In this document: positions 6,418 through 48,223 of the stretch, piece after piece
How positions within the stretch are numbered: position 1 is the first letter of the stretch
How the letters are laid out: every line of letters begins with the position of its first letter
NCBI GenBank assembly: GCA_965246945.1
Contig: CBDFFW010000001.1
Coordinates: 90,796-154,795, forward strand
Length of the DNA: 64,000 nt
Direction of reading: 5' to 3'
DNA from: Alphaproteobacteria bacterium
GTDB taxonomy: Bacteria > Pseudomonadota > Alphaproteobacteria > UBA11073
The notes under the pieces: generated by a model
The model's input: only the letters and a program-made list of their open reading frames with translations
Told to the model about the DNA's origin: nothing
Databases searched by the model: none
Translations under genes and position numbers: made by a program

Positions 6418-6501
6418 GGTCCCATGGCGGAATGGTAGACGCTCACGACTTAAAATCGTGTGCCGATAGGCGTCCCGGTTCAAGTCCGGGTGGGACCACC
6501 A
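6418..6501 (+). tRNA. tRNA-Leu (anticodon UAA), type II with a long variable arm
   Basis: The acceptor stem is ggtccca/tgggacc. The anticodon loop is cttaaaa. The T-arm is cccgg-ttcaagt-ccggg. A discriminator A and an encoded CCA are present. Confidence 0.85.
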
Positions 6502-7133
6502 TAACAGAGAAATGCTTTCATATCAACGTTCTATGTTAACTTATGCCAAATGCCGGTGCTATTCGAATTTAAATAAATAAACCGGCACGACTTTTGGTCG
6601 TAAAATGAAAAAGCTGTGTAAAGAAAAGTTGCAAGAAATCAGTATGTTGACAGTGAGGCAGCTCAAGAAAGCCTTGCACAAGGCTTACCCAACATTATAC
6701 CGTATTGCAAGCTAGTTACTCAAATTCAAAATTTAAACCCAAAGGGTGGAATGAAGCCGGTAGATTTTTGAGTTAGATTGCCTTTGCTACCGTTATTGGC
6801 CACAAGTTGAGGTGCCGGTGCTAGTCACAATGGCTATGCTGCCATTGCTTGTGTAATTAGCTATTTGTTTTCTGGTCATACCGGCATCTACCGTGCCCAG
6901 CGCCGCAACGACCCATTTACTGACAATATATAAACTTAACTATTTCGCATTGGTTATGTCGTTAACACAGCGCTTTAAGCTATTTTATTGCTGATCAATT
7001 AATTCTAAGAGAACCGGATTTATGAAAAAGGCGCAGTGAATTTTGAATTTCATTTTTCAATATGTTGTATTATTATAAAACAGTTCAAAGATTTTGTATC
7101 ATCTATGGTAGGGTGTCTAATGCGTAGGCATTT

Positions 7134-7883
7134 ATGATAGGTTTAAGACAATGGGAATCTGCCACGAAGCAGATCCAACCATTCGCCTTTTTAAAAGCGT
7201 TGACGTTATTCGTCGGTTTATCAGATCAAGAAATAGCGCTTTTTACCGATGTAGCCAAAGTCAAAACTTATAAAAAGGGGCACACACTTTATTCAGAAGG
7301 TGATGAAGCTAAGTTTTTTTATATCATTCGCGATGGCTGGGTAAAATTGTTTCACGTTACTGAGGATGGTGAAGAAGTCAATTTGGGGGTAATTACCAAA
7401 GGCAGCATGCTTGGCAAAAGTGCTATTTTTGAGAATAATATTTTTAATAATAATGCGCAGATTGTTGAAGCCGCAGAAATTGTTAGCATTCCACTGAGTT
7501 TGCTTAAAGAGCAGATCCAAAATAACCAAAAAATTGCCTATAATATGCTCAATTCCATGGTGCAGCATCAGCGAGAGCATGAAATGCAGTTTGAGCAATA
7601 TTTTCTTTATAGCGCCCCGCAGCGCATCGGCTGTTTTTTGTTGGGACTATGCCCAACCTTGGAACAGGTTGATGGCGTGATGCTTAATTTGCCGTATGAC
7701 AAAACGCTAATTGCTTCAACGCTTGGGATGAAGGGGGCTACTTTCTCGCGCGCTTTAAATTTACTGCGCACAGAAACCGGTATTCAGATTGAAGGAACTG
7801 CGGTTGTCATTGCTTCTATGTCTCGCCTGCTTAAATTTGTCGATGGCTGCTATTCGCATCATCACTTAATTAGTAAAATCTAA
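7134..7883 (+). CDS. Crp/Fnr family transcriptional regulator (cNMP-binding domain plus C-terminal HTH)
   Basis: 249 aa. cNMP-binding beta-roll pattern (YSEGDEAKFFYIIRDGWVKLF) and a C-terminal HTH (TLIASTLGMKGATFSRALNLL). AT-rich codon usage. Confidence 0.7.
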   Translation: MIGLRQWESATKQIQPFAFLKALTLFVGLSDQEIALFTDVAKVKTYKKGHTLYSEGDEAKFFYIIRDGWVKLFHVTEDGEEVNLGVITKGSMLGKSAIFENNIFNNNAQIVEAAEIVSIPLSLLKEQIQNNQKIAYNMLNSMVQHQREHEMQFEQYFLYSAPQRIGCFLLGLCPTLEQVDGVMLNLPYDKTLIASTLGMKGATFSRALNLLRTETGIQIEGTAVVIASMSRLLKFVDGCYSHHHLISKI

Positions 7884-8269
7884 ACTTCGCCAAATACGGT
7901 TTTTAACCAGCCCCATTCTAGCATGGCGGGACTATCAATATATTTTTGCCGGTTATCGGCAACGCGTTTGAGATATTGATAATTAAATGGCCATTCATCA
8001 TCTGGGGAAATCGTTTTCGTTTCGGTGATTTCGATTTTCATATTTTTAGTGAGGCGGAGCTTAAATTTTGCTTTTGGCCGATCATCAAAAACAATGGCGT
8101 GCAAGGCTGCGTCATCCGCCAGTTTTTTAAACCGCGCGGCCCAAATTTCGGTATAAGGAAATTTGCTTTTATTCTTTTCAATCGCTTCATTACAGATCTC
8201 TAAATACTGCCGAAATATCTGTTCATATTCTCTTTTTTCTTCAACGGCTTGGGCATTTTTACGAGGCAT
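7880..8269 (-). CDS. Hypothetical protein (129 aa, charged, AT-rich)
   Basis: ORF only. No recognised domain. Convergent with the Crp/Fnr gene, overlapping it by 4 nt. Confidence 0.4.
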   Translation of the reverse strand: MPRKNAQAVEEKREYEQIFRQYLEICNEAIEKNKSKFPYTEIWAARFKKLADDAALHAIVFDDRPKAKFKLRLTKNMKIEITETKTISPDDEWPFNYQYLKRVADNRQKYIDSPAMLEWGWLKTVFGEV

Positions 8270-8321
8270 GGCTTATGCATAGCATTATTTAAAAACAACG
8301 CTTTGATCTAAATCAAATGCG

Positions 8322-9275
8322 TTAATTTAAATTTGCATTGGAATACTGTTTTGTTCCGATCGCAACTGGCAGGCCACTTCCATGCTGAATGGCATTGGCC
8401 ACAACATCCCAATTTATTTCGGTGGTGAAAGTTGCCGCGCTGGCGATGGCAGTATAAATCATTTGGTTGTTGTCCTGCACGAAATGAAGATTGCCCGTGA
8501 TCAAATCGATTGGTTGGATGGGCGCAATTTCCAAATATAACGTATCGCCCTGCCAGCCAAGTTTATAGGGCTGGTTAACCACGGTAACTTCTGTGCCGTC
8601 TTCGATTAATCCGAATAAAGCTTCAATATCTTCAGGGAATAGGCGAATGCAGCCATGGCTGGTGCGTTTGCCAACACTATTCGGCACATTGGTGCCATGA
8701 ATAAGATAGCTCGGCCAGCCGAGATATAGTGCAAAATTGCCAAGCGGATTATCTGGCCCTGGTAAAACCTGTTCAGGCAATTCCGGGTTTTCAGCGCGAA
8801 TGGAAGCAGGCGGTGTCCAAATAGGATTTTGCTTCTTTCTAATAACCGTAGTAGTGCCTTGCGGTGTTTGCGAACCTTCTTTGCCAACACCAATCGGGAA
8901 GCTAAATACATGATCGATATCGGCAAAATAGAACAAGCGCAGTTCCGCCAGATTGATGACAATTCCATCGCGCGGCGCATCGGGCAAAATATGTGCTGTC
9001 GGCAAGGTAAGTATTTTACCAACTTTCAATTTTAGGGGATCGATACCTGGATTGGCTGCCAATAATTTAACGATGCCGACATCATGCTGCTGGGCAATCT
9101 TATATAAATTATCATTTGGCTGTACGGCATAAGAAGTGATGGTGCCAATCAGGTCATCATTAGCGAAAAATTCTGTGGCTTGCACCGCCGACGTTGCCCA
9201 CAGCGATAAAATGAGTAGCAAGGCAAAACGAAACAGAATTTGCCGAAAGTGTAATTTGGTAACAGATATAATCAT
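8322..9275 (-). CDS. L,D-transpeptidase (YkuD/ErfK family) with LysM domain and signal peptide
   Basis: LysM motif (YAVQPNDNLYKIAQQHDVGIVKLLAANPG...KVGKILTLP). YkuD catalytic motif (HGTNVPNSVGKRTSHGCIRL). I chose the start at the Met that precedes the signal peptide (MIISVTKLHFRQILFRFALLLILSLWATSAVQA). The tracked ORF extends to 9380. Confidence 0.75.
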   Translation of the reverse strand: MIISVTKLHFRQILFRFALLLILSLWATSAVQATEFFANDDLIGTITSYAVQPNDNLYKIAQQHDVGIVKLLAANPGIDPLKLKVGKILTLPTAHILPDAPRDGIVINLAELRLFYFADIDHVFSFPIGVGKEGSQTPQGTTTVIRKKQNPIWTPPASIRAENPELPEQVLPGPDNPLGNFALYLGWPSYLIHGTNVPNSVGKRTSHGCIRLFPEDIEALFGLIEDGTEVTVVNQPYKLGWQGDTLYLEIAPIQPIDLITGNLHFVQDNNQMIYTAIASAATFTTEINWDVVANAIQHGSGLPVAIGTKQYSNANLN

Positions 9276-9438
9276 GCGGTTTGATGACCTGTAGAAATAA
9301 ATTGAAGATTCAAAAGCCATTGTTTCCGGTGAGCGAAATAAAAATAAATCAAGCTGCTGATCGTGGCCGCAAAAAAGCACCAGACGGAAACCAGATAATA
9401 ATTAAAAAATGCGTAGGCGATGACAAAGGTAATCAAAT

Positions 9439-9951
9439 TCACAATGCCCAATTTACGCAGATGATTATCGCTGAAAAAAAGAACGCAGCGCAGGTCGCAA
9501 TAACGTAAATCGGGGTGACCCAATGATCATAGGGTATTGGCGGGTAGACGTATAAAATGCATGAATTGGCAATTTGTGCCGAGCCAGTGACCTGTAACAT
9601 GGCTGCTAAAACATAGGCCGCGACGACCCCACCAACTAATGTAACGCCGACCATGACCACACGACGTTGGTGGTTAGGTTCCAGTAACGCCACGCTGGCC
9701 GGTACTAGGATTGGCCAGATAATACCGGCGAATACGCCGTAAATGATGACCAGCCATAGCTGTATTTGCGGCCAAGTGCCGTGCAGCAGGTTAAGCCACA
9801 CCAAACCTTCAATGAATTGCTGAATCGCAAACAGCAGCGGCAAGGCGGCAAAAGGGATTTCTCGGTAACTACTGGTCTTTCGCAGCGAAGCAAAACCGAT
9901 GGTCGCCAAAACAGCAGCTGCACTAAAGCTGGCAACAGGCGAAAAACACAT
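9439..9951 (-). CDS. Hypothetical integral membrane protein (about 5 TM helices)
   Basis: 170 aa, hydrophobic throughout. No recognised motif. Confidence 0.45.
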   Translation of the reverse strand: MCFSPVASFSAAAVLATIGFASLRKTSSYREIPFAALPLLFAIQQFIEGLVWLNLLHGTWPQIQLWLVIIYGVFAGIIWPILVPASVALLEPNHQRRVVMVGVTLVGGVVAAYVLAAMLQVTGSAQIANSCILYVYPPIPYDHWVTPIYVIATCAAFFFSAIIICVNWAL

Positions 9952-10081
9952 CGCTTTGCTTAGCAGCTTGCGAAGCAGAAATATTTGACGTTAGTCAAAT
10001 TAGCCATTTTCAAGTCGTATTTGCTACCCTTAGGTCTGTTGACAAATTGGCCTCTCAACCTAGCGTTAATAGGGTACCACC

Positions 10082-10503
10082 ATGAGCCGCTTGCATATTC
10101 ATTCTGAAAACCATCTGGTTAAGCGCATAGGATGGTTAAGGCAGCCGTACTGGGTGCCAATGACGGCATCATTTCGGTCGCCAGTTTAATTATTGGGGTG
10201 GCTTCCGCTTCAACCGAACATAATCAAATTTTAATTGCCGGTGTGGCTGGGATTGCCGCCGGTGCCATGTCGATGGCAGCAGGCGAATATGTTTCGGTCA
10301 GCTCGCAATCTGATACTGAGCAAGCAGATTTGGCACGTGAACGTAAAGAACTAGCCGAAATGCCTGAAGCCGAATTGAATGAGTTAACTAAAATATACAT
10401 GGATCGCGGGCTGGAGGAGCCATTGGCGCGAGAAGTTGCCACCCAATTGATGAAAAGAGATGCATTAATCTCCTCTTTGGCGGCCACTTCCATTTTAAGC
10501 TGA
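10082..10503 (+). pseudogene. VIT1/CCC1-family iron/manganese transporter pseudogene (a 1-bp frameshift near 10131 plus C-terminal truncation)
   Basis: The frame from ATG 10082 gives MSRLHIHSENHLVKRIGWLRQ. The +1 frame from 10132 gives the conserved VIT continuation AAVLGANDGIISVASLIIGV...AGEYVSVSSQSD. Restoring one G in the run 'ggttaagg(g)cag' would join the two frames into the canonical GWLRAAVLGANDG. The ORF stops after about 120 residues of VIT domain, so the C-terminal TM half is missing. Confidence 0.6.
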
Positions 10504-10574
10504 TCGCTCAATATTTTTAGATCAGCCGTACGCGCTTCCACCGTTAGTTCGGTTGCTGCATAGGCCATTTCTAA

Positions 10575-10964
10575 TTGAGCATTTACCTTTTTCTATGGTT
10601 ACCGCAAGTTTTATGGCTGCATGTCATTTCGGATGCCATTATTGCGCTTTCTTATTACTCCATTCCGCTAACGATCTTATATTTTATTCGCAAACGCCGC
10701 GATCTGCCATTTCCTTATTTGTTTTATTTATTTGGTGCATTTATTCTTTTTTGCGGCACTACACATCTGATGGAAATCTGGGTGATCTGGCAACCCGATT
10801 ATCCGGAGGAAGGCCTTATGAAGGCCTTAACGGCCATGGTTTCCATATGTGCCGCTATTATCACCTGGAAAATTGTCCCTGTAGCACTGCAGTTAAGAAG
10901 CCCAGCAGAATTGGAAACAATGCCCATGCGGCATAAAATCAGCCGTGTCAAAAAAATGGTTTAG
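10575..10964 (+). CDS. Ethylene-binding-domain protein (ETR1-type copper/ethylene-binding transmembrane domain) without any output domain; possibly truncated
   Basis: 129 aa. ISDAIIALSYYSIPLTILYF...FGAFILFCGTTHLMEIW aligns closely with Arabidopsis ETR1 ISDFFIAIAYFSIPLELIYF...FGAFIVLCGATHLINLW. That alignment includes the Cu-ligand Cys and His (CGxTH). Three TM helices are followed by a short helical tail and then a stop. Confidence 0.6.
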   Translation: MSIYLFLWLPQVLWLHVISDAIIALSYYSIPLTILYFIRKRRDLPFPYLFYLFGAFILFCGTTHLMEIWVIWQPDYPEEGLMKALTAMVSICAAIITWKIVPVALQLRSPAELETMPMRHKISRVKKMV

Positions 10965-11725
10965 CATGGTAACAATAACCGTAATTTGAGTTGTCTAAAT
11001 TTTAAAGTTAAAACCCTTTAGCCAATCTTTAAGAAGGCGTATTAGCATACCATTCGGCTTATTGCCACCTAATGGAAATTCTAGAATTCCAGTTGATGAC
11101 AATACGAAAACTTTAAAAAGTTTTACCGCAAAGTAGAGTTTTTTGCCGACGCTTATTTGCGATTATGCGGTTTTATTTCAACACAATACCATGACCTTAA
11201 GCCACCTCAATTATAGATATCCCACCGGTACGGCGTTCACATGCTGATTTAGGGACACTAAACTATTAGCATAACACATTACTCCACCCTGACCAATCGG
11301 GATATTAAGATTTCCACCGCATTGAATCCTTTAAAGCCTGCCTGCATTTAAAATAGAAGCGCTTTTCTTTATCCCGAGTAGAACATGCGTGAGGAGTACG
11401 TACATAAAGTGTAAATATTCGTTATAGAAATGTGTTAGAGCCATTAGATATTCTAATGCGGAACATTAAAACTATGCATTTGACTAATCAATTCGTGGAC
11501 GACAAATTGTATAAAAATAGAGGCTCTCAATGGTGCGGCAAAATTTAGTTCAAAAGAAGCGTGCAGTGGTCAACGAACATTCCGCAGTGGCAGCTCCCAC
11601 AAACCATTGGAATTGCAAGCCTGGATAGCCAGATAACCATAATGCGGTTGGCTAGGTAAACCCTTAGAACAAGATTTTAAAATACTACTTTCAACAATTT
11701 TACAATAAAAAATATAGGATTCTTT

Positions 11726-14683
11726 ATGACAAAATCAGAATGTCCATTTATGCCGCAAGGCGCGACCAAACATGGGTTTGATCTTTTTCGTTATACTTTG
11801 GAAAAGCCAGACCGTGATCTGTTCGATGCTTGGCAGGATACTGTAACTACTGAGGCGCAAAAAGAACTTTATGATATATTATCAACCGAAGCACGTTTAA
11901 AAGTAGCTCAAATTGTGCATGTTTATGGTTTTTATAATTCACAATTAATCGCAAAAGCGCATCGTGAAGCAATTAAATTGCGGCAGGATAATGATGATCT
12001 GCCAGGCCAGACGATCGCTGGTGCTATTCAACGTGCTGCAGAAATGGGTTTAACAGCCGAGCAGATGAAAGAAGTTTTGTTGCGGCAAATTGCTTTATCT
12101 TTAACGGCGCATCCAACTCAATATAATTTACCTGAGCATGTACAGGCACGACAAGTTTTGGCTAAAGCAATACAAAAAGACGATCCCTCTAAGGACGAGA
12201 TCACAGAAGCGCTAAGTCTACTTTTAAATACGCCAGCTGGATTTGCTGAAAAAAAGATCCCGCAACAGGAATTGTTAGAAAATCTTGAGCATGCAACGAA
12301 TTTATTTTGGGTACTGCCTGGTCTACTTGATAGCGTTCGAAAATCGTTAGACATTGTGCATAGACAATTTCCTAACAATGGTTACGGCTATATTTTCACT
12401 GGTATCGAACCAGACATAAAATCAATTGTATTGCGCTTATGGCCGTGTGTAGACCGCGATGGCAATCCAGCGATTACAACGATGGTTACCACACTGGGTA
12501 TTGCCCAAAGCCAAGAAAAAATAGTTGATTTATATATAAATTCTATTGATTACATTTGTAAATTGAATGGCGATAAAGCACCGCGCAAAGTTACTTTCGA
12601 CAGATTACAGCGATTGAAACAAGCTTTAATCGACGGATCAATTTCGCCAAAAAATGATGCGGATATGGAGAAATTTGGTTTATTGCTAACAACTTGTTTA
12701 AAAGTGGAAGATGGGGATGAAGCATCAAAGCAACTACGCTGGCTAGATATGCGGGCACGTGTTTTCCGGTGGCATTTAGGTAAGTTTCAACCACGCCAGG
12801 AAGCAGGTGCCCATACCCAAGCGGTAGCCGCTATTGGTCCGCTTTTGCAGTTCGAAAATGGTTTCGAAGATACTGCTTATAATGCAAATATGCCCCAACC
12901 AGAAAAGCAGCAACAACTGCAAAAAATATTGGCCGCAATAAAGAATGCCAATATTGGTACTTTAGATCGTCTTAATAAAACTATCAGCGATCAATTATCT
13001 ATTGTAAGCCCTCAAATTTATAAGAACTACACTATTTTTAATCTCATAAGCGAAAACCCTGCGCATTTTTGCGATTACATTATTTCAAACGCCGGTAAGC
13101 CAAGCGATGTGTTGGAAGTTCTGGTATTGGCCAAGCTGGCTGGAGCTGAACAGACAATAAATATTCGTATGCTTTGTGAGACGTTGACTGATTTAAAGGC
13201 CATGCCACAAACCCTTGAAACGCTTTTGGCAATTCCTGAATATCGCGATTTCATCAAGCAAAATCACAATAATCGTTTACCTGTTATGATTGCGCTTTCA
13301 GATACTCAGCGCCAACACGGCCCAGCTATTATTTTCGATCAAATCTTAACGATGGTTGATTTATGTAAAGTTGCTTTAAAGCATGAGATCGAGCTCGAAA
13401 TTATGTGGGGTGGCTCTGATGATTTATACCGTGGTGGCGGTGATATTTCGATGTATCCTTATTACCTGGCCCGCAGCATTGTGGGTTATGCGGCAACCAC
13501 TAATCAAAAACTGAGCAAACTGGCAGCGTGCGTAAGAGAAGTTTCGTTTACGCTTCAAGGCCGGCAAGTGGAAGATGTGATTGGCAATACTGCATCTGCT
13601 TGGCGTCTGGGCGAGCGTATGTTTGCTGCCGCAACCAACTTTTATAGCTTTCTACGCGGCGAACACACAGCACAATTTCAGTTAGATTTGGCAGAAGAAT
13701 ATCAAGCCAATGAAGCTGCACGCGATGCCTTGCAGCCCTGCATGCGTGCCTATGAATTCATGCGCGGACCTTTGCTTGACACATTAAGTTTAGCTGTAGT
13801 GCCTGCTGCCGCAGTTAAAAAGTTAAACACTTCTTCTAGGCCAGACAAACGGCCAACGGTTATTGGCAATCCAGACCCACGTGAAATTGATGCATTGCCA
13901 TTAACTGATACCCGCGCCATTACCAACCAGTTTGCGGTGCAATTACCTGGATTAGAAATAAACGGTTGGTTTGGTTTAACCCAATTGGCTGACCTTGATG
14001 CCCGAATTGTTCAAAACTCTCCCATTCTACAGGAAATGCTTAAACGTGCGCTTATCTGTTTAGAACGCACATATCTTGAAAAAGTTTGGATGTTTTCTGG
14101 ACTTACACCACCTGCTTCCTGCATAGCCGCTTTGTACGATACCGCATTCAATCAGGTTTGGCAGCGGGAATTGCAACTTAGTATCAATGGCAAGCTAGAT
14201 CAAACCAATAAGCTCATACAATTTGATTTTAACAAATATATGCCCGTTGTATTGCAGCAATTGGATTTGGATGATACGTTAATAAATCGTCAGACTGTTT
14301 TATTAACCTGGCTTGAAGCAGAATATAAGCGTACGGAAAAAGTAGTTTGTCGGAAGTTTTTTAATAATCCCAAATTTAGTTCTCAATCCGCACGTGAAGC
14401 AGTAAAAACTTTTCCACGTTTATCTGAAGAACTTGTTTTGCAGAAAAGAAATATTGCGCCTATGCAAACATGGCTGGCAATGGCCACTACAGAATTGTAC
14501 CAAACGCCTCAGCCGACCCAAGCGCAACTTACTGCCCTGCAGGCTTTTGCCCAGGTAATTGCTGAAGGCACGCGTACGCCTAATGCTTACATTAACCACA
14601 CGCCCGGCTTTGAGCCAGACATGCGCAAAGTTAGTGATCATTTAAGTAAATTTGGCCCCAAAACATTCGCTGTTACTATTTAA
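11726..14683 (+). CDS. Divergent phosphoenolpyruvate carboxylase (PEPC)-like protein with substituted catalytic motifs; AT-rich
   Basis: 985 aa. It is colinear with E. coli Ppc through several signature blocks. LTAHPTQ matches [17 protein letters not shown] matches [31 protein letters not shown] matches [29 protein letters not shown] matches [21 protein letters not shown] corresponds to [32 protein letters not shown] corresponds to IELTLFHGRGGSIGRGGAP, with the His and the first Arg replaced. The C-terminus ends at ...FAVTI and lacks the conserved ...AGIAAGMRNTG tail. Confidence 0.7.
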   Translation: [985 protein letters not shown]

Positions 14684-14695
14684 TTCAACATTTCC

Positions 14696-15538
14696 TCAAC
14701 ATTTAAGTCTTTTTAGCACAAATTCTTCGAATGAATTTATCGCGGCATTATCGGCACGGTGTTTCAATAGTGAAACATGCGTAGCCTCCAACGCGGGTAA
14801 TAATTTTGTGCGCAAGGCATTTAATTGATCTGGAATCATAGTTAACGGTAAAACGGTAATTCCCAAACCGGCTTTAACAGCGGCAATTGTACCAGCATAA
14901 CTGGGACTAGAGAAGACCAGCCGCCATTTCAATCCAGCCCTTTCAAGCGATTGGAGGGCGCTGGACCGGTAGACACAAGGTTGCGGCGCAACTACCAAGG
15001 GAATAGGCCTGCCAGACTCCACCAAATTCATATCGCCTACCCATTCCAAGGGTTCAGACCACACTTCAACGCCATTTGGAAAATTCTCAGGTTGGTTCAT
15101 TTTCACCAGTACCAGATCAAACTTTTTTTGTTTGAAGCGCTGGAATAAATTTAAAGTTAAATCGCACTCCACATTTACCAATATGCGTGGATGAATGCGC
15201 GCGAACTCCACCAAAATATCTGATAAAAAGACGCTGGCAAAATTCTCTGGTAAGCCAAACCGTACTTCACCATGTAATTCCGGCTCTTTAAATCGATCTA
15301 ATGCTTCTCGATGCAAGGCGAAAATCTGCCGCGCATAGCTGCGAAAAATCTCGCCTTCGGCAGTTAAAGCAAAAGCTTTGCCACGTGTGAATAACTGTTT
15401 GCCAAGCAACTCTTCAAGTTTAGCAATTTGCTGACTAACAGCGGATTGCGTGCGGCCCACACGTTCAGCTGCTTTGGTGAAGCTAGCAGTTTCCGCCACA
15501 GCTAAAAAGGTCTGCAAAGTGATGGTATCGATAGTCAT
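14696..15538 (-). CDS. LysR-family transcriptional regulator, divergently transcribed from dabB
   Basis: 280 aa. N-terminal HTH (LQTFLAVAETASFTKAAERVGRTQSAVSQQIAKLEELLG) plus a substrate-binding domain. Convergent with the PEPC-like gene, with a 12-nt gap. Confidence 0.8.
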   Translation of the reverse strand: MTIDTITLQTFLAVAETASFTKAAERVGRTQSAVSQQIAKLEELLGKQLFTRGKAFALTAEGEIFRSYARQIFALHREALDRFKEPELHGEVRFGLPENFASVFLSDILVEFARIHPRILVNVECDLTLNLFQRFKQKKFDLVLVKMNQPENFPNGVEVWSEPLEWVGDMNLVESGRPIPLVVAPQPCVYRSSALQSLERAGLKWRLVFSSPSYAGTIAAVKAGLGITVLPLTMIPDQLNALRTKLLPALEATHVSLLKHRADNAAINSFEEFVLKRLKC

Positions 15539-15641
15539 TAGATTTTCTAATTTAGGATATAAGAATTATCCGTTTCACTTATCTAAATAATACTAATAGC
15601 TTGGTCAATAGAAATTAACATTTCTATGCCAAGGAGCAAAT
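15539..15641. promoter_or_regulatory. Divergent lysR/dabB intergenic control region (putative LysR-box-like AT dyads; RBS aaggag at 15630-15635)
   Basis: 103-bp AT-rich spacer containing ATAAGAATTAT / TTATC...TAAATAAT dyad-like elements. A canonical Shine-Dalgarno lies 7 nt before the dabB ATG. Confidence 0.35.
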
Positions 15642-16970
15642 ATGCTATCATCACTATTCCATATTGATCGGCTTGCCATCATTATGCTGGCTTTAATTGG
15701 TGCTATTGGCCTAATCATTTGGCAATTTTCACGGCGTTATTTGCAGGGCGATCAATTATATCGTGTTTTTTTCCAGCGGCTCGCATGTTTATTGGCATCA
15801 TTGGCATCATTGGTCATTACCGATAACCTAATTGTATTTTTAATCAGCTGGGGATTGGCCAATTATTGGTTGGTAAAATTGATGGTTCACAAGTCGGAAT
15901 GGTCTGCCGCCAAAGCGGCGGGGGAATTAACAGGTAAATCGCTTGGCCTGGGTTTTGCCAGCCTAGTTGCTGGCTTTACCTTGCTTTATTGGCTAACCGG
16001 CACGGCTTCTATTCAAGCGATTTTGCTGCACAATAATCAACACCCGGCTTTGCTGCTTGCCCTTGGATTAATTTTATTTACCGCCCTCATCCAATCAGCG
16101 ATTTGGCCTTTTTCCGGCTGGTTGAAAAATTCGCTTAATTCACCAACCCCTGTTTCGGCCATCATGCATGCCGGTCTGGTGAATGGGGGCGGTTTTTTAC
16201 TGGTACGTTTTGCGCCGCTTTATCTGCAACAGCCGTTGCTGCTCCAAATCATTTTTGTGCTTGGCATTACCAGCGCGGTGATTGGCACGTTATGGAAACT
16301 GCTGCAGCCGGATATTAAGCGGATGCTGGCTTGTTCGACCATGGCGCAAATGGGTTTTATGCTGGCGCAATGCGGCCTTGGTTTATTCCCGGCGGCAGTG
16401 GCCCATCTGTGCTGGCATGGCCTGTTCAAAGCCTATTTGTTTTTAGGCGCAGGTGGCGCGGCCCAGGAAAAGCGCTTGCCGATTATCCATCCGAATAGCT
16501 TTACCGCTTTTGCTTTGGCGCTGCTCTGCGGCTTACTTGGCAGTTATGGCTTTGCATTGGCCAGCCAACATGCATGGCTGGCGCCCAATAGCATATTGGT
16601 ACTGCAAGCGGTGGCTTCAATAGCTGCTGCGCAACTCGCGCTCACCCTGCTGCAAAATAAGCCATGGCAACGGCTGCCGCTGGCCGTTTTATTATGCGCC
16701 ATCGCTGGTGGTATGTATGGCGGCACCGTTGGCTTGGTTGAGCAAGTAATGGCACCGCTGCAAATTTTCCAACCGCAATCACTAAATGCTCTGCATATCA
16801 GTGCCATCGTTATCCTGGCCGCTGGTTGGCTCGGCATGTTGTTTAGCCAGCAGCTTGGCCGCCTAACCCAGCAGCCGTTTTTCTTACGCGGTTATGTGCT
16901 GGCGCTAAATGCAAGTCAGCCAAGCCCCGCTACCATCACCGCCCACCGCAACCATTATCGCTTAGGATAA
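15642..16970 (+). CDS. dabB: DabB/MpsA-like proton-conducting membrane transporter (NuoL/MrpA/NDH-5 family, PF00361-like)
   Basis: 442 aa polytopic membrane protein. Complex I antiporter-like subunit motifs are present (SPTPVSAIMHAGLVNGGGFLL; STMAQMGFML; HLCWHGLFKAYLFLGAG). It is immediately followed by a DUF2309 gene. Confidence 0.75.
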   Translation: MLSSLFHIDRLAIIMLALIGAIGLIIWQFSRRYLQGDQLYRVFFQRLACLLASLASLVITDNLIVFLISWGLANYWLVKLMVHKSEWSAAKAAGELTGKSLGLGFASLVAGFTLLYWLTGTASIQAILLHNNQHPALLLALGLILFTALIQSAIWPFSGWLKNSLNSPTPVSAIMHAGLVNGGGFLLVRFAPLYLQQPLLLQIIFVLGITSAVIGTLWKLLQPDIKRMLACSTMAQMGFMLAQCGLGLFPAAVAHLCWHGLFKAYLFLGAGGAAQEKRLPIIHPNSFTAFALALLCGLLGSYGFALASQHAWLAPNSILVLQAVASIAAAQLALTLLQNKPWQRLPLAVLLCAIAGGMYGGTVGLVEQVMAPLQIFQPQSLNALHISAIVILAAGWLGMLFSQQLGRLTQQPFFLRGYVLALNASQPSPATITAHRNHYRLG

Positions 16971-16973
16971 ATC

Positions 16974-19208
16974 ATGCAAACTGCCCTGAAAACCAAAGTT
17001 GTTGAAGTGACTGAAAACCCAGCCTACGACCTCGGCGAAGCGATTGCGACGGCTTGGAATTATATTGCGCCGTTCTGGCCGCTGAAAAACTTAATTGCCT
17101 GTAATCCCTTGCAAGGCCTAGAAGATTTACCTTTTGAGCAAGCGTTAAATAAAGGCATCGTGCTGTTTCAGCGCGCTGATCTGCCATCACCGCTGCTGGC
17201 TGTTAATCGCCAAACCATCAAATGGTGTCAGGTATTGTTTGACGATGGACAGGCGAGTTTAACCATGCCGCTGCGCGAACAGGGGTTTTTCGCCGCCTGG
17301 CGGCAATTGGCGGTGTTCGATGCACAGCTGCATCAAAATAATCAATTTCATAAAATGTGGTTGAACCGCCTGCCGCTTTCGGCTGAACAAACCATTGCGG
17401 AATGTTTGGTGAAATTGAATATTCCAGCAGCACAACACGAAACGTTTTTAACTTTATTATTAACCACCTTGCCTGGCTGGGCGGCTTATGCCAAATACCG
17501 TCTGAATTGGGAGCCAGATCAAGCGAATGCCACTTGCCCCATCCGCTCGGCTGATTATCTGGCAGTGCGCTTGGTTATCACCACCCTGCTATGGCCGGAT
17601 GCGGCAGAGTTATTGGTGGAACAAGATAATATTTCACCAGCAACTGATATCTTGGCCACCATCACTACCAAAGAAACAGCTTACCGCCAGGATTTATTGG
17701 CGAATTTGAAGCGGCAAGCGGCTGCCCCGCCAACTATCCGCCCAGCCGCACAAATGATATTCTGCATCGATGTGCGTTCCGAACCAATGCGCCGGGCGAT
17801 AGAAGGGCAGGGTGACTATGAAACCTTTGGCTTCGCAGGCTTTTTTGGCCTGCCGATAAGCTTGCAAAATGAAAAAACGGGCGAACGCTATGCATCCTGC
17901 CCAGTTTTGCTGCAACCTAAGTATCATTTGTCCGAAACCAGTTGCACTAGTGGGGATTGTGCTTCAGATAATGCGAACAGTAAGGCGCGTTTGCGTTTGT
18001 ATAAAAGTTTCTATCAGGCATTGAAATATCATTTTACGACCCCGTTCGCGCTGGTTGAAACGTTAGGCTTATGGGCCGGTTTGTGGATGGGTTTGCGCAC
18101 ACTGGCGCCGCAGACAGCTATTCAATTAAAGACCAACATTGTTAAAAAAATCAGGCCTGAAGTGCAAACCCAATTTGATATTGCGGGCAGCATCCCCTTT
18201 GCCGATCAATGTACTATGGCTGGCGGCGCCTTGCGTATGATGGGGTTAACCCAAAATTTCGCGCCACTAGTCGTTCTATGCGGCCATGGCAGTACCACGC
18301 AAAACAACGCTTATGCCACGGCCTTGGATTGCGGCGCGTGCGGCGGACGGCATGGCGGGAGCAATGCGCGTATTTTGGCGGCGATTTTGAACCATCAAAT
18401 GGTCCGGGTAGCTTTGGTGCAAGACGGTATTGTCATTCCGGCCGATACGCATTTTATCGCCGCGCAGCATGATACCACCACGGATGCGATTAACTTGTTA
18501 GTCGATGACGAATTATTAGGTGATCATCGCAACCAGGTCAGCACGTTACACGCAGCATTATCCCAAGCACAACACACCAATCAGCGAGTGCGCGCCGCAC
18601 AAATGAATACAGAGCTTGATCATATTCAATTGCGTAGCTGTGACTGGGCCCAAACCCGCCCGGAATGGGGCTTGGCACGCAATGCGGCGTTTATTGTTGG
18701 GCCACGTAGTTTAACTGCAACATTAAATTTAGCGGGCCGTAGTTTTCTGCATTCCTATGACTGGCAGCAAGATGCTAATAGTACAGCGCTTACTACCATT
18801 TTAACCGCGCCGATGGTGGTTGCCCAATGGATTAATAGCCAGTATTTATTTTCCAGCTTGGATAATGTGGCTTATGGCAGCGGCAGCAAAATTACCCAAA
18901 ATGTCACTGGCAAAATGGGGATTATGCAGGGCAATGCCAGCGACTTAATGCATGGTTTGCCCCTGCAATCGGTTTACTCCAACGACAACAAACCTTATCA
19001 CCAGCTGCAACGGTTGCTAACCGTGGTTTACGCGCCCAAAGCGAAAATTGATAAAATTATCGCCGCGCAGCCCGTTTTACAAAAACTATTCGGCAATGGC
19101 TGGGTGCAATTGGTTTGCCTTGAACCAGCCAGCAAACTGGCCTATCAGCTGCAGCGTGATTTCACTTGGGAGAAATTAGTAGGTGAGCATGTCATGCTAT
19201 GCGGGTAG
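16974..19208 (+). CDS. dabA: DabA/MpsB-like DUF2309 protein (beta-carbonic-anhydrase-like component of the DAB inorganic-carbon uptake system)
   Basis: 744 aa. It starts 4 nt after the dabB stop. It contains a beta-CA-like CxDxR motif (IFCIDVRSEP) and an H...C cluster (CGHGSTTQNNAYATALDCGACGG). Length and arrangement match DUF2309 partners of NuoL-like proteins. Confidence 0.75.
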   Translation: MQTALKTKVVEVTENPAYDLGEAIATAWNYIAPFWPLKNLIACNPLQGLEDLPFEQALNKGIVLFQRADLPSPLLAVNRQTIKWCQVLFDDGQASLTMPLREQGFFAAWRQLAVFDAQLHQNNQFHKMWLNRLPLSAEQTIAECLVKLNIPAAQHETFLTLLLTTLPGWAAYAKYRLNWEPDQANATCPIRSADYLAVRLVITTLLWPDAAELLVEQDNISPATDILATITTKETAYRQDLLANLKRQAAAPPTIRPAAQMIFCIDVRSEPMRRAIEGQGDYETFGFAGFFGLPISLQNEKTGERYASCPVLLQPKYHLSETSCTSGDCASDNANSKARLRLYKSFYQALKYHFTTPFALVETLGLWAGLWMGLRTLAPQTAIQLKTNIVKKIRPEVQTQFDIAGSIPFADQCTMAGGALRMMGLTQNFAPLVVLCGHGSTTQNNAYATALDCGACGGRHGGSNARILAAILNHQMVRVALVQDGIVIPADTHFIAAQHDTTTDAINLLVDDELLGDHRNQVSTLHAALSQAQHTNQRVRAAQMNTELDHIQLRSCDWAQTRPEWGLARNAAFIVGPRSLTATLNLAGRSFLHSYDWQQDANSTALTTILTAPMVVAQWINSQYLFSSLDNVAYGSGSKITQNVTGKMGIMQGNASDLMHGLPLQSVYSNDNKPYHQLQRLLTVVYAPKAKIDKIIAAQPVLQKLFGNGWVQLVCLEPASKLAYQLQRDFTWEKLVGEHVMLCG

Positions 19209-20037
19209 ACAGATCTTGTTGCCTACCCAGCATCAAAAAGCGATGGCACTAGCGCCAGCATTCAAAAATGTTTTGGACGCTGAGATTGCCGAAATTATCA
19301 TTGATACCGATCAATTCGGTACTTTTTCAGGCGAGGTTGAACGACCAGGTGATGCACAGGCTTGCGCCAAGCTTAAATGTGAAGCAGCGTTGGCTATCAC
19401 GGATACACCTTACGCTGTCGCCAGCGAAGGCAGTTTTGGTCCGCATCCCGTTATTCCAATATTGGCTTGCAACCATGAACTGCTATATTTTATTGATCAC
19501 GAAAATGACTTTCACTTGTCTTTAACCAAGCTATGCACAGATACCAATTACCGCATGGCAACGGTTGAGAATGTTGATCAGCTACATACTTTTGCCAAAC
19601 AAACTTATTTTACTTCGCATGCTTTGATGATCAGGCCCAATATCTGGGCTGACCAAAAGATTATTTTCAAAGGTCTCCAAACATATGAGGCCCTCCATCA
19701 AGCTTTTATAGTTGCTTGCCAAAATTCTGGTGATGGGCAGGCTTTCGTCCAAACCGAAATGCGTGCTCACTTCAATCCAACCCGCATGCGAAATATTGCC
19801 AAATTGGCAGGAGATTTGGCTAAACGGTTATGTTCAATTTGCCCTGTTTGCCAAACACCCGGTTGGGGCAAGATTGCCATCAAAACTGGCTTGCCCTGTA
19901 GCTGGTGCCAAACCAAAACCAACCTTGTAAAAAATGAAATATGGGGTTGCGCCAAGTGTGATTATCAGGAAGCGAAAGAACGATTAGATGGTTTGCGAGC
20001 TGCCGAGCCGACTTATTGTCCCAGCTGTAATCCTTAA
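19183..20037 (+). CDS. Hypothetical protein with a C-terminal double CxxC zinc-ribbon, translationally coupled to dabA (start uncertain: 19183, 19189 or 19243)
   Basis: 284 aa ORF overlapping the dabA stop by 26 nt. The C-terminus reads CSICPVCQTPGW...CSWCQT...CAKCDY...CPSCNP, which gives 4 to 5 CxxC pairs. Confidence 0.5.
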   Translation: MSMSCYAGRQILLPTQHQKAMALAPAFKNVLDAEIAEIIIDTDQFGTFSGEVERPGDAQACAKLKCEAALAITDTPYAVASEGSFGPHPVIPILACNHELLYFIDHENDFHLSLTKLCTDTNYRMATVENVDQLHTFAKQTYFTSHALMIRPNIWADQKIIFKGLQTYEALHQAFIVACQNSGDGQAFVQTEMRAHFNPTRMRNIAKLAGDLAKRLCSICPVCQTPGWGKIAIKTGLPCSWCQTKTNLVKNEIWGCAKCDYQEAKERLDGLRAAEPTYCPSCNP

Positions 20038-20348
20038 ATTTCTACTAAATTGAAGTGACAAAAAATTAAATGAAAACTTTTAGCGAGAAGGTGCTAGCTA
20101 AATCTATGTCCGCTGATACCAATAATATAGGCGATGTCATGCTGCGTATTTTAGCGCCAGATAAACCATTTTTTAACTTACCCTTTATGTTTTCAAATCG
20201 CTTGGTAGTTATCATGCAAAAACCGTAAAAAAGCTTTAAAGTTCTGATTAAATAATTTTTAATAGTTAACATTTATTATTTTGAAATAAGTGATTGTTGA
20301 TCAAATCCTCGCTAAATAGCTTCCTGCAGAACCTCACGGCGTTCTTGC

Positions 20349-20975
20349 TCAGGCTTGGTTGCGAATCTGTCCATATTTGGTCTGCTTAATTTTTAGGATA
20401 ACATCGGCCAGCCAACCTGGCACCTGGGAAACGGTAGAAGTTAAATCTTTCAGATCCTGATCATCCAGCCGATTGGCACATTGCTGGATGGTTTGCGCAT
20501 CAATACTGCCTTTACCGAGACAAGATAGGGCCTGCAGGGTAAAATTGGCATTGGTGGAAATGCGATCCATCAAAGGCACCCTGGCATGTTTGAAGGTGAT
20601 GGTGCGGCCAGCCATGTGTTTAGTTTTGGAAATGCCATTAGTCAGATAAACAGGCTTTGCTGGCACCTGGGTGGATAATCCCAGGATATTAGCAGACGCA
20701 GCACCAGAAGGAAAAACCATAGCGCCGGTTTTAGTGGCGATGATTTGCGCCAAATCATCAGCGCTGGGGGATAGGGTGCCAAGGGTTGGGTGTTGCTTAG
20801 GGTAATCGTAAATACCACGCCCCAAGCGCCGGATGGTACCATTCTTTGCCAACCGTGCGAATGTTTGATCGACAGCGGCACGCGTGCCAACATCTAAAAA
20901 GTCTTTGGGCGTAAACACCCAGCCACGCCGTTTGGCGTGGATTCTTTGGGTAATCGTGGCGGTAACGTCGTACAT
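20349..20975 (-). CDS. DUF6088 / AbiEi-family (type IV TA antitoxin-like) protein, apparently orphan
   Basis: 208 aa. The N-terminal pattern RGWVFTPKDFLDVGTRAAVDQTFARLAKNGTIRRLGRGIYDYP and the central LGLSTQVP motif match the DUF6088/AbiEi_4 family from memory. No AbiEii-like nucleotidyltransferase ORF is adjacent. Confidence 0.6.
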   Translation of the reverse strand: MYDVTATITQRIHAKRRGWVFTPKDFLDVGTRAAVDQTFARLAKNGTIRRLGRGIYDYPKQHPTLGTLSPSADDLAQIIATKTGAMVFPSGAASANILGLSTQVPAKPVYLTNGISKTKHMAGRTITFKHARVPLMDRISTNANFTLQALSCLGKGSIDAQTIQQCANRLDDQDLKDLTSTVSQVPGWLADVILKIKQTKYGQIRNQA

Positions 20976-21230
20976 AGCAGTATTTATATGTCAGATAATA
21001 ACATATATATTTCTGACAATCAAAAATTTACAGTTTACCTGACTTTTAGTGTTAATCAGACGTTCCGAAATAATGGAATAAATTATGAAATACAGCTTTG
21101 TTAATGTTTAGCCAAAATTATCACCTAAAAGAAGCCCAAAATCGTCAAAAGTTACCCAGAAACTTACCCAATTATATTTTCTATATATAAAACACAATTA
21201 ATATCAGTACATTATAGGTAGTCCCAATAC

Positions 21231-21285
21231 ACTTAAAATCGTGTGCTGTTATGGCGTCCCGGTTCAAGTCCGGGTGGGACCACCA
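21231..21285 (+). repeat. Partial tRNA-Leu copy (anticodon loop through CCA), a direct repeat of 6448-6501. Putative distal att site of the island.
   Basis: acttaaaatcgtgtgc ... cgtcccggttcaagtccgggtgggaccacca is identical to the tRNA-Leu 3' part, apart from the variable-loop segment (tgttatgg versus cgatagg). It has no 5' half, so it is not a functional tRNA. Confidence 0.7.
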
Positions 21286-40219: not shown

Positions 40220-41194
40220 ACCATGCTTTGGCAACTAACCCTGACCGCGCCAGCGGAATTATGCCTGGCGGCGGAAGACACTTTGGACGTTTGGGCACAA
40301 GCCACCAGCCAGATTTGGGATGATGCGGAAAAGCTGACGGGCCTAGTTGCTTATGCCTCCAACAAACCAGATGCAATATTTTTGTCGCGTTTGGACATAC
40401 TCGCACAGTCGCTGCAGATTACCGATTACCATTATATTATTGCCACGGTGCCGGAAAATGATTGGGTCCAACAGGTATTGAACGAATTAACACCCTTGCA
40501 ACTTGGCCGGTTTTATATCTATGCCAGCCATCATATTGCACCGGCGCGTGATGGCCGCTGGCCATTATGTTTGGATGCAGCGCAAGCCTTCGGCACTGGT
40601 CAGCATGGCAGCACAGCTGGCTGCCTGCTTGCGTTAGATATATTGGCAAAAAAATTACGGCATGTGCCACGCGCTTTGGATATGGGTTGTGGTAGTGGCA
40701 TTCTGGCCATGGCGATGGCGCGTGCCTGGGACGGGCGAGTTGATGCTATCGATAATGATGCGCTGGCCGTACGGGAGACTAAACGCAATGCCAAGCGCAA
40801 TCACTTGCGCAGCAAAATTCATGCTTATCATGGTAACGGCAAATGGCTGCGCCAGCCGCAAATGGCATATGGTCTGCGCCAACAAAAATATAAAGTAATT
40901 TGCGCCAATATTTTAGCCAAGCCGTTGGTTTGGCTTGCACCAAAACTGGCACCACAAGTCGCTGCTGGTGGCTACCTCGTGCTCGCCGGTTTATTGAATC
41001 GTCAGGCACCCATGGTACTTTCGGCTTACCGCCGCCACGGTTTATATTTGTCTAAAGCAATCCGCCAAGGCAACTGGACCACATTGCTTTTGCATAAACC
41101 ATGCCGCAAATTTCATCCCAATAGTTTGCTTGCATCGACCGCTTTGTTCCGGCTAGCCTCAGCCACTAAGTCGGGACGTAGCGCAGTCCGGTAG
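40220..41194 (+). CDS. prmA: Ribosomal protein L11 methyltransferase PrmA; the 3' end may be slightly over-extended into tRNA-Pro
   Basis: MLWQLTLTAPAE... is a typical PrmA start. SAM-binding motif LDMGCGSGILA. The tracked ORF starts at 40169 and overlaps the tRNA by about 23 nt. Confidence 0.75.
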   Translation, partial: TMLWQLTLTAPAELCLAAEDTLDVWAQATSQIWDDAEKLTGLVAYASNKPDAIFLSRLDILAQSLQITDYHYIIATVPENDWVQQVLNELTPLQLGRFYIYASHHIAPARDGRWPLCLDAAQAFGTGQHGSTAGCLLALDILAKKLRHVPRALDMGCGSGILAMAMARAWDGRVDAIDNDALAVRETKRNAKRNHLRSKIHAYHGNGKWLRQPQMAYGLRQQKYKVICANILAKPLVWLAPKLAPQVAAGGYLVLAGLLNRQAPMVLSAYRRHGLYLSKAIRQGNWTTLLLHKPCRKFHPNSLLASTALFRLASATKSGRSAVR

Positions 41195-41248
41195 CGTACT
41201 AGTCTGGGGGACTAGGGGTCGCGGGTTCGAATCCCGCCGTTCCGACCA
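41172..41248 (+). tRNA. tRNA-Pro (anticodon GGG)
   Basis: The acceptor is cgggacg/cgttccg (one G-U pair). The D-arm is agcgcagtccggtagcgt. The anticodon loop is ctgggga. The T-arm is gcggg-ttcgaat-cccgc. An encoded CCA is present. Confidence 0.85.
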
Positions 41249-41408
41249 TTTCATAATCCAACCTCATCCGATACAATCCAAAAATGGCTCTGTATCCCTT
41301 ATATCACAAGGGTTTTAAAGGTTATTCGGATTGGAATGGATTCATCGACATCCGACATTTTTAGGGGTATATATATGGATATATCCAACCCAGCTAGGAT
41401 GTACCCGC

Positions 41409-48103: not shown

Positions 48104-48129
48104 ACTGCTGGGTAGTATTCCTTACCATG

Positions 48130-48163: not shown

Positions 48164-48223
48164 GTCATGACCGTGACACGATCTAGAACAGATTGTTAAA
48201 CTCATTATTTTGGGGAGGGCAGA

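Follow-up and report, generated by a model that had tools for sequence, protein, structure and literature searches.

Introduction

The catalytic core of phosphoenolpyruvate carboxylase (PEPC) is commonly regarded as the same throughout the family, and bicarbonate is the established co-substrate of phosphoenolpyruvate (PEP). Two divergent lineages, the bacterial-type PEPC of plants (BTPC) and the archaeal-type PepcA, retain the canonical catalytic Lys and Arg as well as the lid, and both are proven carboxylases. H579 of PEPC (Escherichia coli numbering, used for all PEPC positions unless P0001 residues are named) is reported to be non-essential. H138, H579 and R587 are residues with published mutagenesis, and a role in the carboxyphosphate step has been reported for H138 (Terada & Izui 1991), in both cases as cited in PMC11832675. 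Here we describe a PEPC-like protein, P0001, encoded within 64,000 nucleotides of DNA from an alphaproteobacterium (GenBank assembly GCA_965246945.1, contig CBDFFW010000001.1, forward-strand positions 90,796 to 154,795), a stretch that we refer to as the window. P0001 belongs to a clade that keeps the PEP and metal ligands of PEPC yet replaces K546, R581, the lid and the regulatory tail, and its gene lies close to genes for a putative DAB inorganic-carbon pump. To judge from its sequence, P0001 is most likely an Mg-PEP enzyme that is still active, and it may be a carboxylase without allosteric control.

Results

P0001 is a complete homologue of PEPC

The gene and the stretch preceding it are as follows.

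11726..14683, plus strand: PEPC-like coding sequence, 985 aa (P0001), assigned from its open reading frame (ORF) and translation, PF00311, an AlphaFold2 (AF2) model and Foldseek; member of the GGSDD-lid subclade of an atypical branch of the PEPC superfamily
10965..11725, no strand: AT-rich gap of 761 bp 5' of the PEPC-like gene, devoid of ORFs of 80 aa or longer

The 985 codons are uninterrupted, and an AGGA lies 7 nt 5' of the ATG. Pfam PF00311 (PEPcase) covers most of the protein (E=1.5e-39, 136 bits, against a gathering score of 22.4), and a phmmer search of the chains in the Protein Data Bank (PDB) matched only PEPCs, the best being maize 1JQO (6e-18). The AF2 model, built on a 57-sequence alignment, has a mean predicted local distance difference test (pLDDT) of 81.3 and a predicted template modelling score (pTM) of 0.86, with weak spots at the lid (residues 566-571, pLDDT <50), in a loop at 710-723 and at the C-terminal residues 927-976. 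Among the 50 matches listed when this model was compared with the PDB by Foldseek, all were PEPC chains, with query-normalised TM-scores (TMq) of 0.57-0.66. In the predicted structure the three-dimensional fold of PEPC, a beta-barrel with its helical shell, is intact. The Pfam, phmmer, AF2 and Foldseek matches together place the homology of P0001 with PEPC far beyond chance. P0001 scores 129 bits against the NCBIfam PEPC equivalog NF000584, whose cutoff is 815, and so falls below the threshold for a bona fide PEPC (EC 4.1.1.31); the (M/L)RN(T/S)(G/A) tail by which such an enzyme can also be recognised is absent. In the Pfam scan P0001 did not match PF14010 (archaeal-type PEPC), a family that the Bacteroidota PEPCs returned by the word-indexed search described below do match.

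A promoter-like site is found at 11677-11706, in the gap 5' of the gene, and in a scan for promoters and terminators around the gene such sites were no commoner than in shuffled sequence. The 761-bp stretch itself may serve as a promoter region or may be what is left of a gene since lost.

The active site is kept on one side and rebuilt on the other

To map residues, E. coli ppc was added to a MAFFT alignment of P0001, its paralog P0002 and 55 canonical PEPCs. The canonical reference consists of the 56 PEPCs of this alignment and the 88 canonical representatives of the profile search described below, 144 in all. The paralog (1048 aa) is encoded on the same 1,794,760-bp contig, outside the window. 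The motifs of P0001, all on the plus strand, are these.

12104..12118: TAHPT, aa 127-131, in which H129 corresponds to H138 and is kept (alignment)
12452..12469: DRDGNP, aa 243-248, kept (alignment); in most of the wider atypical clade this reads DGDGNP or DADGNP
12785..12808: FQPRQEAG, in which R357 corresponds to R396 (PEP phosphate ligand) and is kept, with D394 changed to Q (alignment)
13175..13195: CETLTDL, aa 484-490, in which E485 corresponds to E506 (metal ligand) and is kept; L483 corresponds to L504 (hydrophobic pocket)
13292..13315: ALSDTQRQ, aa 523-530, equivalent to GYSDSAKD, with D526 (D543, metal ligand) kept and G540A, K546R (R529) and D547Q changed (HMMER to maize PEPC, MAFFT)
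13403..13441: remodelled Gly-rich lid, with F578M, H579W, R581G, G582S, G583D and S584D changed and R569 (R587) kept (alignment)
13838..13852: RPDKR, in which R705 (R699) and R709 (R703) are both kept (alignment)
13910..13951: RAITNQFAV block, with R730 (R713) kept and P716T, W717N, W721V and R725G changed (alignment)
14594..14683: C-terminus ending ...KTFAVTI in place of the canonical ...GMRNTG (alignment; low pLDDT at 927-976)

TAHPT, DRDGNP, KPSDVLEVL (aa 458-466) and CETLTDL succeed one another in canonical order. Kept in both paralogs are H138, W248, the run D252-R-D-G-N-P, R396, L504, E506, M538, S542, D543, R587-G-G-G, T611, Q613, R699, P700, R703 and R713-A-I. H138, the His of TAHPT, is invariant in 44 of 44 aligned atypical and 87 of 87 aligned canonical sequences, and P0001 keeps the hydrophobic pocket around the enolate as W239, L483 and M521. 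The two paralogs are changed alike at K546R, D547Q, G540A, F578M, R581G, G582S, G583D, S584D, D394Q, P716T, W717N, W721V and R725G. Of the 69 columns with a conservation of 95% or more in the 56 PEPCs, both paralogs keep 40 and share the same change at 14, nine are kept in one paralog and six differ; at these columns P0001 and P0002 are identical in 54 of 69, versus 42% identity overall.

The changes are heaviest in the lid. Residues 560-571 of P0001 pair with the canonical lid block FHGRGGSIGRGG both in the HMMER alignment to maize PEPC and by MAFFT, and the canonical GRGG lid becomes GGSDD. K546 and R581, which are invariant in 56/56 and 88/88 canonical PEPCs, are R529 and G563 in P0001. Position 579 is W in P0001 and D in P0002; its loss is of little weight, since canonical PEPCs already carry either H (48) or D (39) there. 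Further on, RAITNQFAV pairs with the canonical RAIPWIFAW, from which it follows that R713 is retained, while the canonical WTQNR pairs with VQLPG and is likewise substituted.

The allosteric aspartate (Asp) site and the C-terminus have changed as well. In P0001, K773 is replaced by R and R832 by Q, and N881 is absent; across the two paralogs R832 is Q or K. An NHTPG block near the C-terminus is common to P0001 and P0002 and SPG-type variants of it recur in relatives, the residues beyond it being variable. P0002 still carries a vestige of the tail, ...IVSMRAA, with 15 more residues after it, and the C-terminus of P0001 is shorter than those of P0002 and of the relative P0241. As read from the alignment, what has been rebuilt in P0001 is the side thought to be used by canonical PEPC for bicarbonate or carboxyphosphate and for allosteric control (K546R, D547Q, R581G, the GGSDD lid, W717/W721/R725, the Asp site and the RNTG tail).

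These data bear on a preliminary description of the same DNA, made from the sequence alone, which had recognised P0001 as a PEPC homologue with motifs in canonical order. Both points stand, the first on PF00311, on the fold of the AF2 model and on the PEPC-only list of 50 Foldseek matches, the second on the finding of all four motifs in sequence, and the AlphaFold model that it called for shows a predicted barrel that is intact. It was also right that GYSDSAKD is substituted, the equivalent by HMMER and MAFFT being ALSDTQRQ, and that the C-terminal MRNTG is missing from the alignment. The lid loop has indeed lost its His and first Arg (H579W and R581G by both methods), although the former matters little given the canonical H or D. 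The statement that WTQNR reads AITNQ was mis-registered by seven residues, AITNQ aligning instead to AIPWI. Finally, the general claim that the most conserved catalytic elements are altered applies to K546R, R581G, H579W and the C-terminal tail, and not to H138, R396, R587, R699 and R713, nor to E506 and D543, all of which are conserved.

P0001 belongs to an atypical branch of the superfamily

A word-indexed search of 5.8 billion proteins returned P0001 itself and P0002, followed by ordinary PEPCs at 82 bits or less, and a word-indexed profile search was likewise dominated by canonical PEPCs. The clade to which P0001 belongs was revealed only by an exhaustive HMMER search with a two-sequence profile (P0001 and P0002), carried out at the level of 50%-identity clusters, with the 150 listed representatives mapped to E. 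coli numbering. The highest scores were those of P0241 (487 bits), P0242 (335) and P0243 (239), below which came a long series of proteins of ~950-1200 aa. Like P0001, these three proteins carry SDTQR[QE]xGP, GGSDDx[VY]RGG and T[DE]TRAITN blocks. Among the 150 representatives at least 48 are atypical, 88 are canonical and 14 are partial or intermediate, and the median length is 994 aa in the atypical clade versus 880 aa in the canonical proteins.

The atypical representatives share a signature composed of K546R (48/48), G540A (47/48), R581G (45/48), R253G/A (40/48), R725G (33/48) and K773M (22/48), and they also lack W717/W721 and the RNTG end. Within the same set E506, D543, R587, L504, T611 and Q613 are invariant in 48/48 and M538 is kept in 44/48, while H138, W248, R396, R699, R703 and R713 are invariant or show at most one aligned exception, in proteins that are otherwise only ~20-26% identical. 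A neighbour-joining tree (772 columns, capped Kimura distances, 100 bootstraps; a rough method), in which 35 atypical sequences were included, separated all 35, along with the intermediates P0244 and P0315, from the remaining sequences by a single bipartition in 83/100 replicates, in agreement with the residue signature of the atypical set. A GGSDD subclade consisting of P0001, P0002, P0241, P0461 and P0243 was recovered in 86/100. P0001 bears every signature residue of the clade and falls inside both the atypical bipartition and the GGSDD subclade. The GGSDD-x-[YV]RGG lid is found in P0001, P0002, P0241, P0242/P0461, P0243 and the protein of locus L021, and the SDTQR[QE]xGP and T[DE]TRAITN blocks are shared by P0001, P0002, P0241, P0242/P0461 and P0243.

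Records of the National Center for Biotechnology Information (NCBI) in the cluster of P0242 are named 'hypothetical protein' or 'phosphoenolpyruvate carboxylase, partial' (HCM84376.1, HRJ13150.1) and come from metagenome-assembled genomes (MAGs) of Rhodospirillaceae and Alphaproteobacteria; the labelled atypical members are all from alphaproteobacterial MAGs. A scan of assembled-genome contigs gave only ordinary PEPCs, from MAGs of Acidobacteriota and Chloroflexi, and a scan of metagenomes gave almost exclusively canonical PEPCs, the atypical loci being L021 and L043 only. No description of such a bacterial PEPC-like clade was found in the searchable literature, an absence that is no proof that none exists. 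Taken jointly with the reading of P0001 as a functional enzyme, and with somewhat less than even confidence, we propose from these sequences that P0001 represents a previously unannotated, monophyletic and fast-evolving branch of the PEPC superfamily, carried by small-genome Alphaproteobacteria wherever labels or context exist.

The distribution of kept and changed residues could also be explained by an active Mg-PEP enzyme that has acquired a new acceptor, such as water (a PEP phosphatase), another carboxylate or a neutral or cationic nucleophile, and whose product would not be oxaloacetate. The substitutions are concentrated in the lid and in adjacent strands, whereas the PEP and metal ligands are all invariant; the coupled clade-wide changes (K546R, R581G, G540A) look like a new specificity that has become fixed and unlike drift; the clade branches separately and has a C-terminal motif of its own; and its fast evolution and paralogy are unlike those of canonical PEPC. 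However, H138, for which a role in the carboxyphosphate step has been reported, is kept strictly, the 546/547/581 trio carries roughly the same net charge as in canonical PEPC, and no neighbouring genes at the ten loci described below point to an alternative pathway. Extended to the whole branch, this reading would describe a widespread alphaproteobacterial lineage with an Mg-PEP half-site, a new acceptor site and a non-carboxylation reaction, of which a second copy was captured with a LysR-controlled DAB pump on a tRNA-Leu island. We consider both the general and the extended form unlikely, if still worth weighing seriously.

It is considerably harder to see P0001 as a pseudo-enzyme or metabolite sensor, that is, a PEPC scaffold that binds PEP or a related ligand without turnover and acts through protein-protein contacts or regulation. 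The alteration of the canonically invariant K546 and R581 and of the Gly-rich lid, the absence of the C-terminal tail and the fast evolution of non-motif sequence would be expected of such a protein, but pseudo-enzymes usually lose their metal ligands and catalytic base, and here E506, D543, H138, R587 and all the PEP arginines show little or no variation among some 48 representatives at ~20-26% identity. Nor is any partner gene conserved beside the PEPC-like gene. The preliminary description had listed a pseudo-enzyme or sensor among its options, and this strict retention of metal and PEP ligands across so divergent a clade makes it very unlikely.

Relatives occupy a chromosomal slot between recF and gyrB

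The surroundings (8-10 kb) of ten atypical loci were examined (L010-L013, L016, L018-L021 and L043). A shared order, kdsD-lptC-lptA-acyltransferase-lptB-dnaN-recF-[PEPC-like]-gyrB, is found for P0241 (L010), P0243 (L012), P0244 (L011, a 1.93-Mb circular contig) and P0461 (L013-L015), and the PEPC-like gene is vertically kept in this fixed gyrB/recF slot in four related lineages. More distant members lie near gshB (L018, L020), two genes from an Mdh-type dehydrogenase (L016) or in unrelated surroundings (L019, L021). In the case of L016 (positions 13628-15081; P0258, GCA_964588995.1), a 161-aa ORF and the gene for an Ldh/Mdh-family dehydrogenase converge on the PEPC-like gene, which hints weakly at metabolism of oxaloacetate or malate.

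The family changes quickly in this conserved setting. Between L010 and L012 identity is 97% for DnaN, 95% for LptB, 69% for RecF, 48% for the acyltransferase and 29% for the PEPC-like protein; between L010 and L013 the corresponding values are 95%, 90%, 65%, 48% and 62%. The synonymous divergence (dS) of the neighbouring genes in these loci is already 0.8-1.3, and for this reason the ratio of nonsynonymous to synonymous divergence (dN/dS) of the PEPC-like gene cannot be reliably estimated. Extreme diversifying selection was set aside on the same grounds and because the acyltransferase is itself only 48% identical; the contrast with the neighbours is real but less dramatic. P0243 (L012), which is 28-29% identical to the other syntenic copies, could represent an allele that was replaced or whose evolution was strongly accelerated.

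P0001 and P0002 are each other's closest relatives, at 39% identity in the search and 45% over aligned columns. A Tajima relative-rate test between them was non-significant with three of four outgroups, which indicates that the island copy, P0001, is not decaying faster than P0002. A decaying pseudogene was rejected for P0001, whose ORF is whole, whose motifs are constrained and whose rate is the same as that of its paralog. A small, strict set of active-site residues within a fast-changing shell fits an enzyme freed from the allosteric and oligomeric constraints of canonical PEPC, and also fits a changed function.

Rapid divergence and paralogy would also be accounted for by a secreted effector, directed at a host or prey, that reuses the PEPC fold. 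The divergence exceeds that of DnaN, LptB and RecF, though the adjacent acyltransferase diverges almost as much; there are two paralogs, the genomes are small (1.8-1.9 Mb) and possibly host-associated, and a Rickettsiales-type Surface_Ag_2 outer-membrane protein is encoded beside the L021 member. On the other hand, P0001 when inspected by eye has neither a signal peptide nor any other secretion signal that could be recognised, genes for secretion systems are absent from the window and the related loci, the slot beside recF and gyrB is a stable chromosomal one, and PADLOC gave no match. Such an effector seems to us highly improbable. A known role in anti-phage defence was dropped as a candidate, P0001, P0002, P0241, P0243, P0244 and P0247 all being without a PADLOC match.

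The window copy lies on a tRNA-Leu island beside lysR-dabBA

Around the PEPC-like gene, the following features define the island and its neighbouring genes.

6418..6501, plus strand: tRNA-Leu(taa), whose 3' half (6448-6501) is the left island repeat (ARAGORN, Rfam, repeat search)
14696..15538, minus strand: LysR-family regulator (Pfam HTH_1 and LysR_substrate; below all NCBIfam equivalog cutoffs)
15642..16970, plus strand: DabB-like proton-translocating subunit of the NuoL/Mrp type (PF00361, 3.9e-39, and PF00662; NCBIfam NuoL-like matches)
16974..19208, plus strand: DabA, carbonic-anhydrase-like subunit of the DAB inorganic-carbon pump (PF10070, 8.8e-225, 749 bits)
19183..20037, plus strand: DUF6671 ORF 3' of dabA, overlapping the dabA stop by 26 nt (Pfam); the match begins at residue 65 and the true start may be downstream
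20349..20975, minus strand: AbiEi-type antitoxin-like gene (DUF6088), the last gene in the island (Pfam; PADLOC AbiEi, 1.7e-60)
21231..21285, plus strand: partial tRNA-Leu copy, from the anticodon loop to CCA, which is the right island repeat, just 5' of lexA (repeat search)

The two tRNA-Leu repeats are ~95% identical over 55 nt (33 nt identical, with two mismatches and one indel overall) and, read as a classic boundary, they bracket a tRNA-integrated island of about 14.8 kb (6502-21285). Its cargo comprises a crp-like gene, a YkuD transpeptidase, DUF6629, half a VIT1 ORF, an ETR1_N ORF, the PEPC-like gene, lysR, dabB, dabA, DUF6671 and the AbiEi-like gene. None of the ORFs in 6502-21285 matches Phage_integrase, the sole integrase-family gene of the window being at 43982-45001. 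The G+C content at third codon positions (GC3) is 0.348 for the PEPC-like gene, the lowest among window ORFs longer than 250 aa (window mean 0.481, standard deviation 0.073), and 0.52-0.53 for dabB and dabA, near the window mean. The island is compositionally mosaic and degenerate, and the GC3 gap suggests different histories for the PEPC-like gene and dabBA. The AT-rich codon usage, island location and horizontal acquisition put forward in the preliminary description agree with this low GC3 and with the 55-nt repeat.

The PEPC-like gene and lysR are convergent, with a gap of 12 nt to the lysR stop, and lysR is divergent from dabB in the usual arrangement of LysR-type transcriptional regulators, so that the coordinates bear out the distance and the divergent pairing given earlier. 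Being convergent with lysR, the PEPC-like gene does not share an operon with dabB and dabA, and these are separate transcription units. The dabB-dabA genes form an adjacent pair with a 3-nt gap, and by their Pfam domains they are assigned to a putative DAB pump. Beside dabBA no DabC-like small membrane gene was identified; DabC of DAB1 systems has been described as being without a Pfam family (bioRxiv 10.64898/2026.05.01.722082), and the DUF6671 ORF does belong to one.

The preliminary description had suggested a bicarbonate pump wired to a PEPC paralog. As a hypothesis, this would make the PEPC-like protein and DabAB a dedicated, co-acquired inorganic-carbon module in which the LysR-controlled pump feeds the enzyme, a question separate from that of what the enzyme does. 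Both lie within one 14.8-kb tRNA-Leu island, 12 nt plus one lysR gene apart, and bicarbonate is the co-substrate of PEPC. Against this, the two are convergent, separate transcription units with GC3 values of 0.35 and 0.52, and the closest relatives sit between gyrB and recF. A tblastn search with the DabA, DabB, DUF6671 and LysR proteins of the window found nothing in L009-L100 (among them the ten atypical and ~70 canonical PEPC loci), and dabA, dabB and this lysR are absent within 8-10 kb of 10/10 atypical loci; the co-occurrence of the clade with dabAB that the preliminary description had proposed to look for is accordingly 0/10. As no dab genes accompany any examined relative, the adjacency is unique to this window (n=1). 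Among the papers listed in a literature search none mentions both Dab subunits and PEPC, and the searchable literature yielded no account of a Dab-PEPC module, an absence that again proves nothing. The PEPC-like gene and lysR-dabBA are co-carried on one island, and shared island cargo explains their adjacency without a dedicated module. Beyond this co-carriage the wiring is not supported, and we regard the module as improbable.

Several other features of the window deserve mention. Within the island, the VIT1-family ORF (10132-10503, plus strand) covers only profile positions 1-117 of 214 and is truncated or split, and it is followed by a 129-aa ORF (10575-10964, plus strand) that is an ethylene-receptor-type N-terminal domain (ETR1_N, 1.3e-39). 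The AbiEi-like gene (20349-20975) has no AbiEii toxin gene beside it and is convergent with the DUF6671 ORF. Elsewhere, 41172-45001 holds a tRNA-Pro(ggg), a very AT-rich 95-aa ORF (GC3 0.23), a tetratricopeptide repeat (TPR)-methyltransferase and a tyrosine recombinase (43982-45001), and may be a second small island or a housekeeping xerC/xerD. A CarD-like protein of 493 aa (28033-29514, plus strand) has an N-terminal extension of ~320 aa without a Pfam match; the gene called as its counterpart in L009 (12159-12377) is a 72-aa CarD_C fragment only. At 45055-51235 a TPR/GT41 (O-GlcNAc-transferase-like) gene lies beside flagellin, flbT, flgK and flgL, in the same order in L009, and this may be a flagellin glycosylation cluster. 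GltX of the window is 55-58% identical to those of Rhodospirillales and 'Ca. Nucleicultrix' and 86% identical to that of L009, a metagenome contig of the European Nucleotide Archive (ENA) that is syntenic from comEC to lexA. The other genes of the window (lpxC, tol-pal, flagellar genes, transketolase, GAPDH) fit a Gram-negative alphaproteobacterium whose chromosome measures about 1.8 Mb.

Discussion

The reading that we favour, and hold tentatively at somewhat below an even chance, is that P0001 is a functional cytoplasmic enzyme, a non-allosteric variant of PEP carboxylase (PEP + HCO3- -> oxaloacetate + Pi). By analogy with the canonical active site, it would bind Mg-PEP and perform the phosphoryl-transfer and enolate chemistry of PEPC. 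R529, together with D547Q, would compensate for the lost guanidinium of R581: in the trio 546/547/581 the change from K/D/R to R/Q/G roughly preserves the net charge, and the guanidinium may have been relocated. The copy in the window is the second of two old paralogs, carried as cargo with lysR-dabBA on a degenerate 14.8-kb tRNA-Leu island, and the DAB pump would raise bicarbonate for any carboxylase in the cell. The hints of carboxylation are weak and contextual, namely the Mdh-type dehydrogenase two genes away in L016 and the proximity of DabAB in the window.

Several observations weigh against a carboxylase. R581 and K546 are invariant in 144/144 canonical PEPCs, and their loss may therefore abolish bicarbonate activation. 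The GGSDD subclade places two Asp in a lid that is meant to close over an anionic intermediate, and the C-terminal tail, reported to be important for the activity of plant PEPC, is absent in P0001. The PEPC-like family outpaces its housekeeping neighbours DnaN, LptB and RecF, which is unusual for a central anaplerotic enzyme, and two paralogs in a 1.8-Mb genome would be unexpected for a simple housekeeping role.

If the members of this clade are still carboxylases, they show which 'essential' residues are replaceable and offer a PEPC scaffold that is non-allosteric by nature. Otherwise, Alphaproteobacteria that have small genomes and are poorly known possess a PEP-dependent activity that is new. 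In either case, genes of the clade should not be named 'phosphoenolpyruvate carboxylase' automatically in metabolic reconstructions without experimental evidence.

Comparison with known systems

With respect to the DAB (DabAB/MpsAB) pumps, the window contains a standard dabB-dabA pair with a divergent LysR, and the PEPC-like gene lies outside that unit. Within its own clade, whose other representatives include P0247-P0250, P0001 shares K546R, R581G and G540A, the loss of W717/W721/R725 and the lack of an RNTG tail; it differs in its location on a tRNA-Leu island beside lysR-dabBA and away from the gyrB/recF slot, in its retention of DRDGNP, which most of the clade has replaced, and in a C-terminus shorter than in P0002 and P0241. 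Canonical Ppc (PF00311; E. coli 1FIY/1JQN, maize 1JQO/5VYJ) resembles P0001 in overall fold, in the order of the motifs and in the PEP and metal ligands, but the two are only ~20% identical, K546, R581, the GRGG lid, the Asp site and the RNTG tail have been changed or lost, and P0001 fails three sequence-level tests for a bona fide PEPC, namely the equivalog score, K546/R581 with the GRGG lid, and the C-terminal tail with the Asp site. Plant BTPC and archaeal-type PepcA (PF14010) provide the precedents for strongly divergent PEPC lineages in which regulation is altered or regulatory segments are absent.

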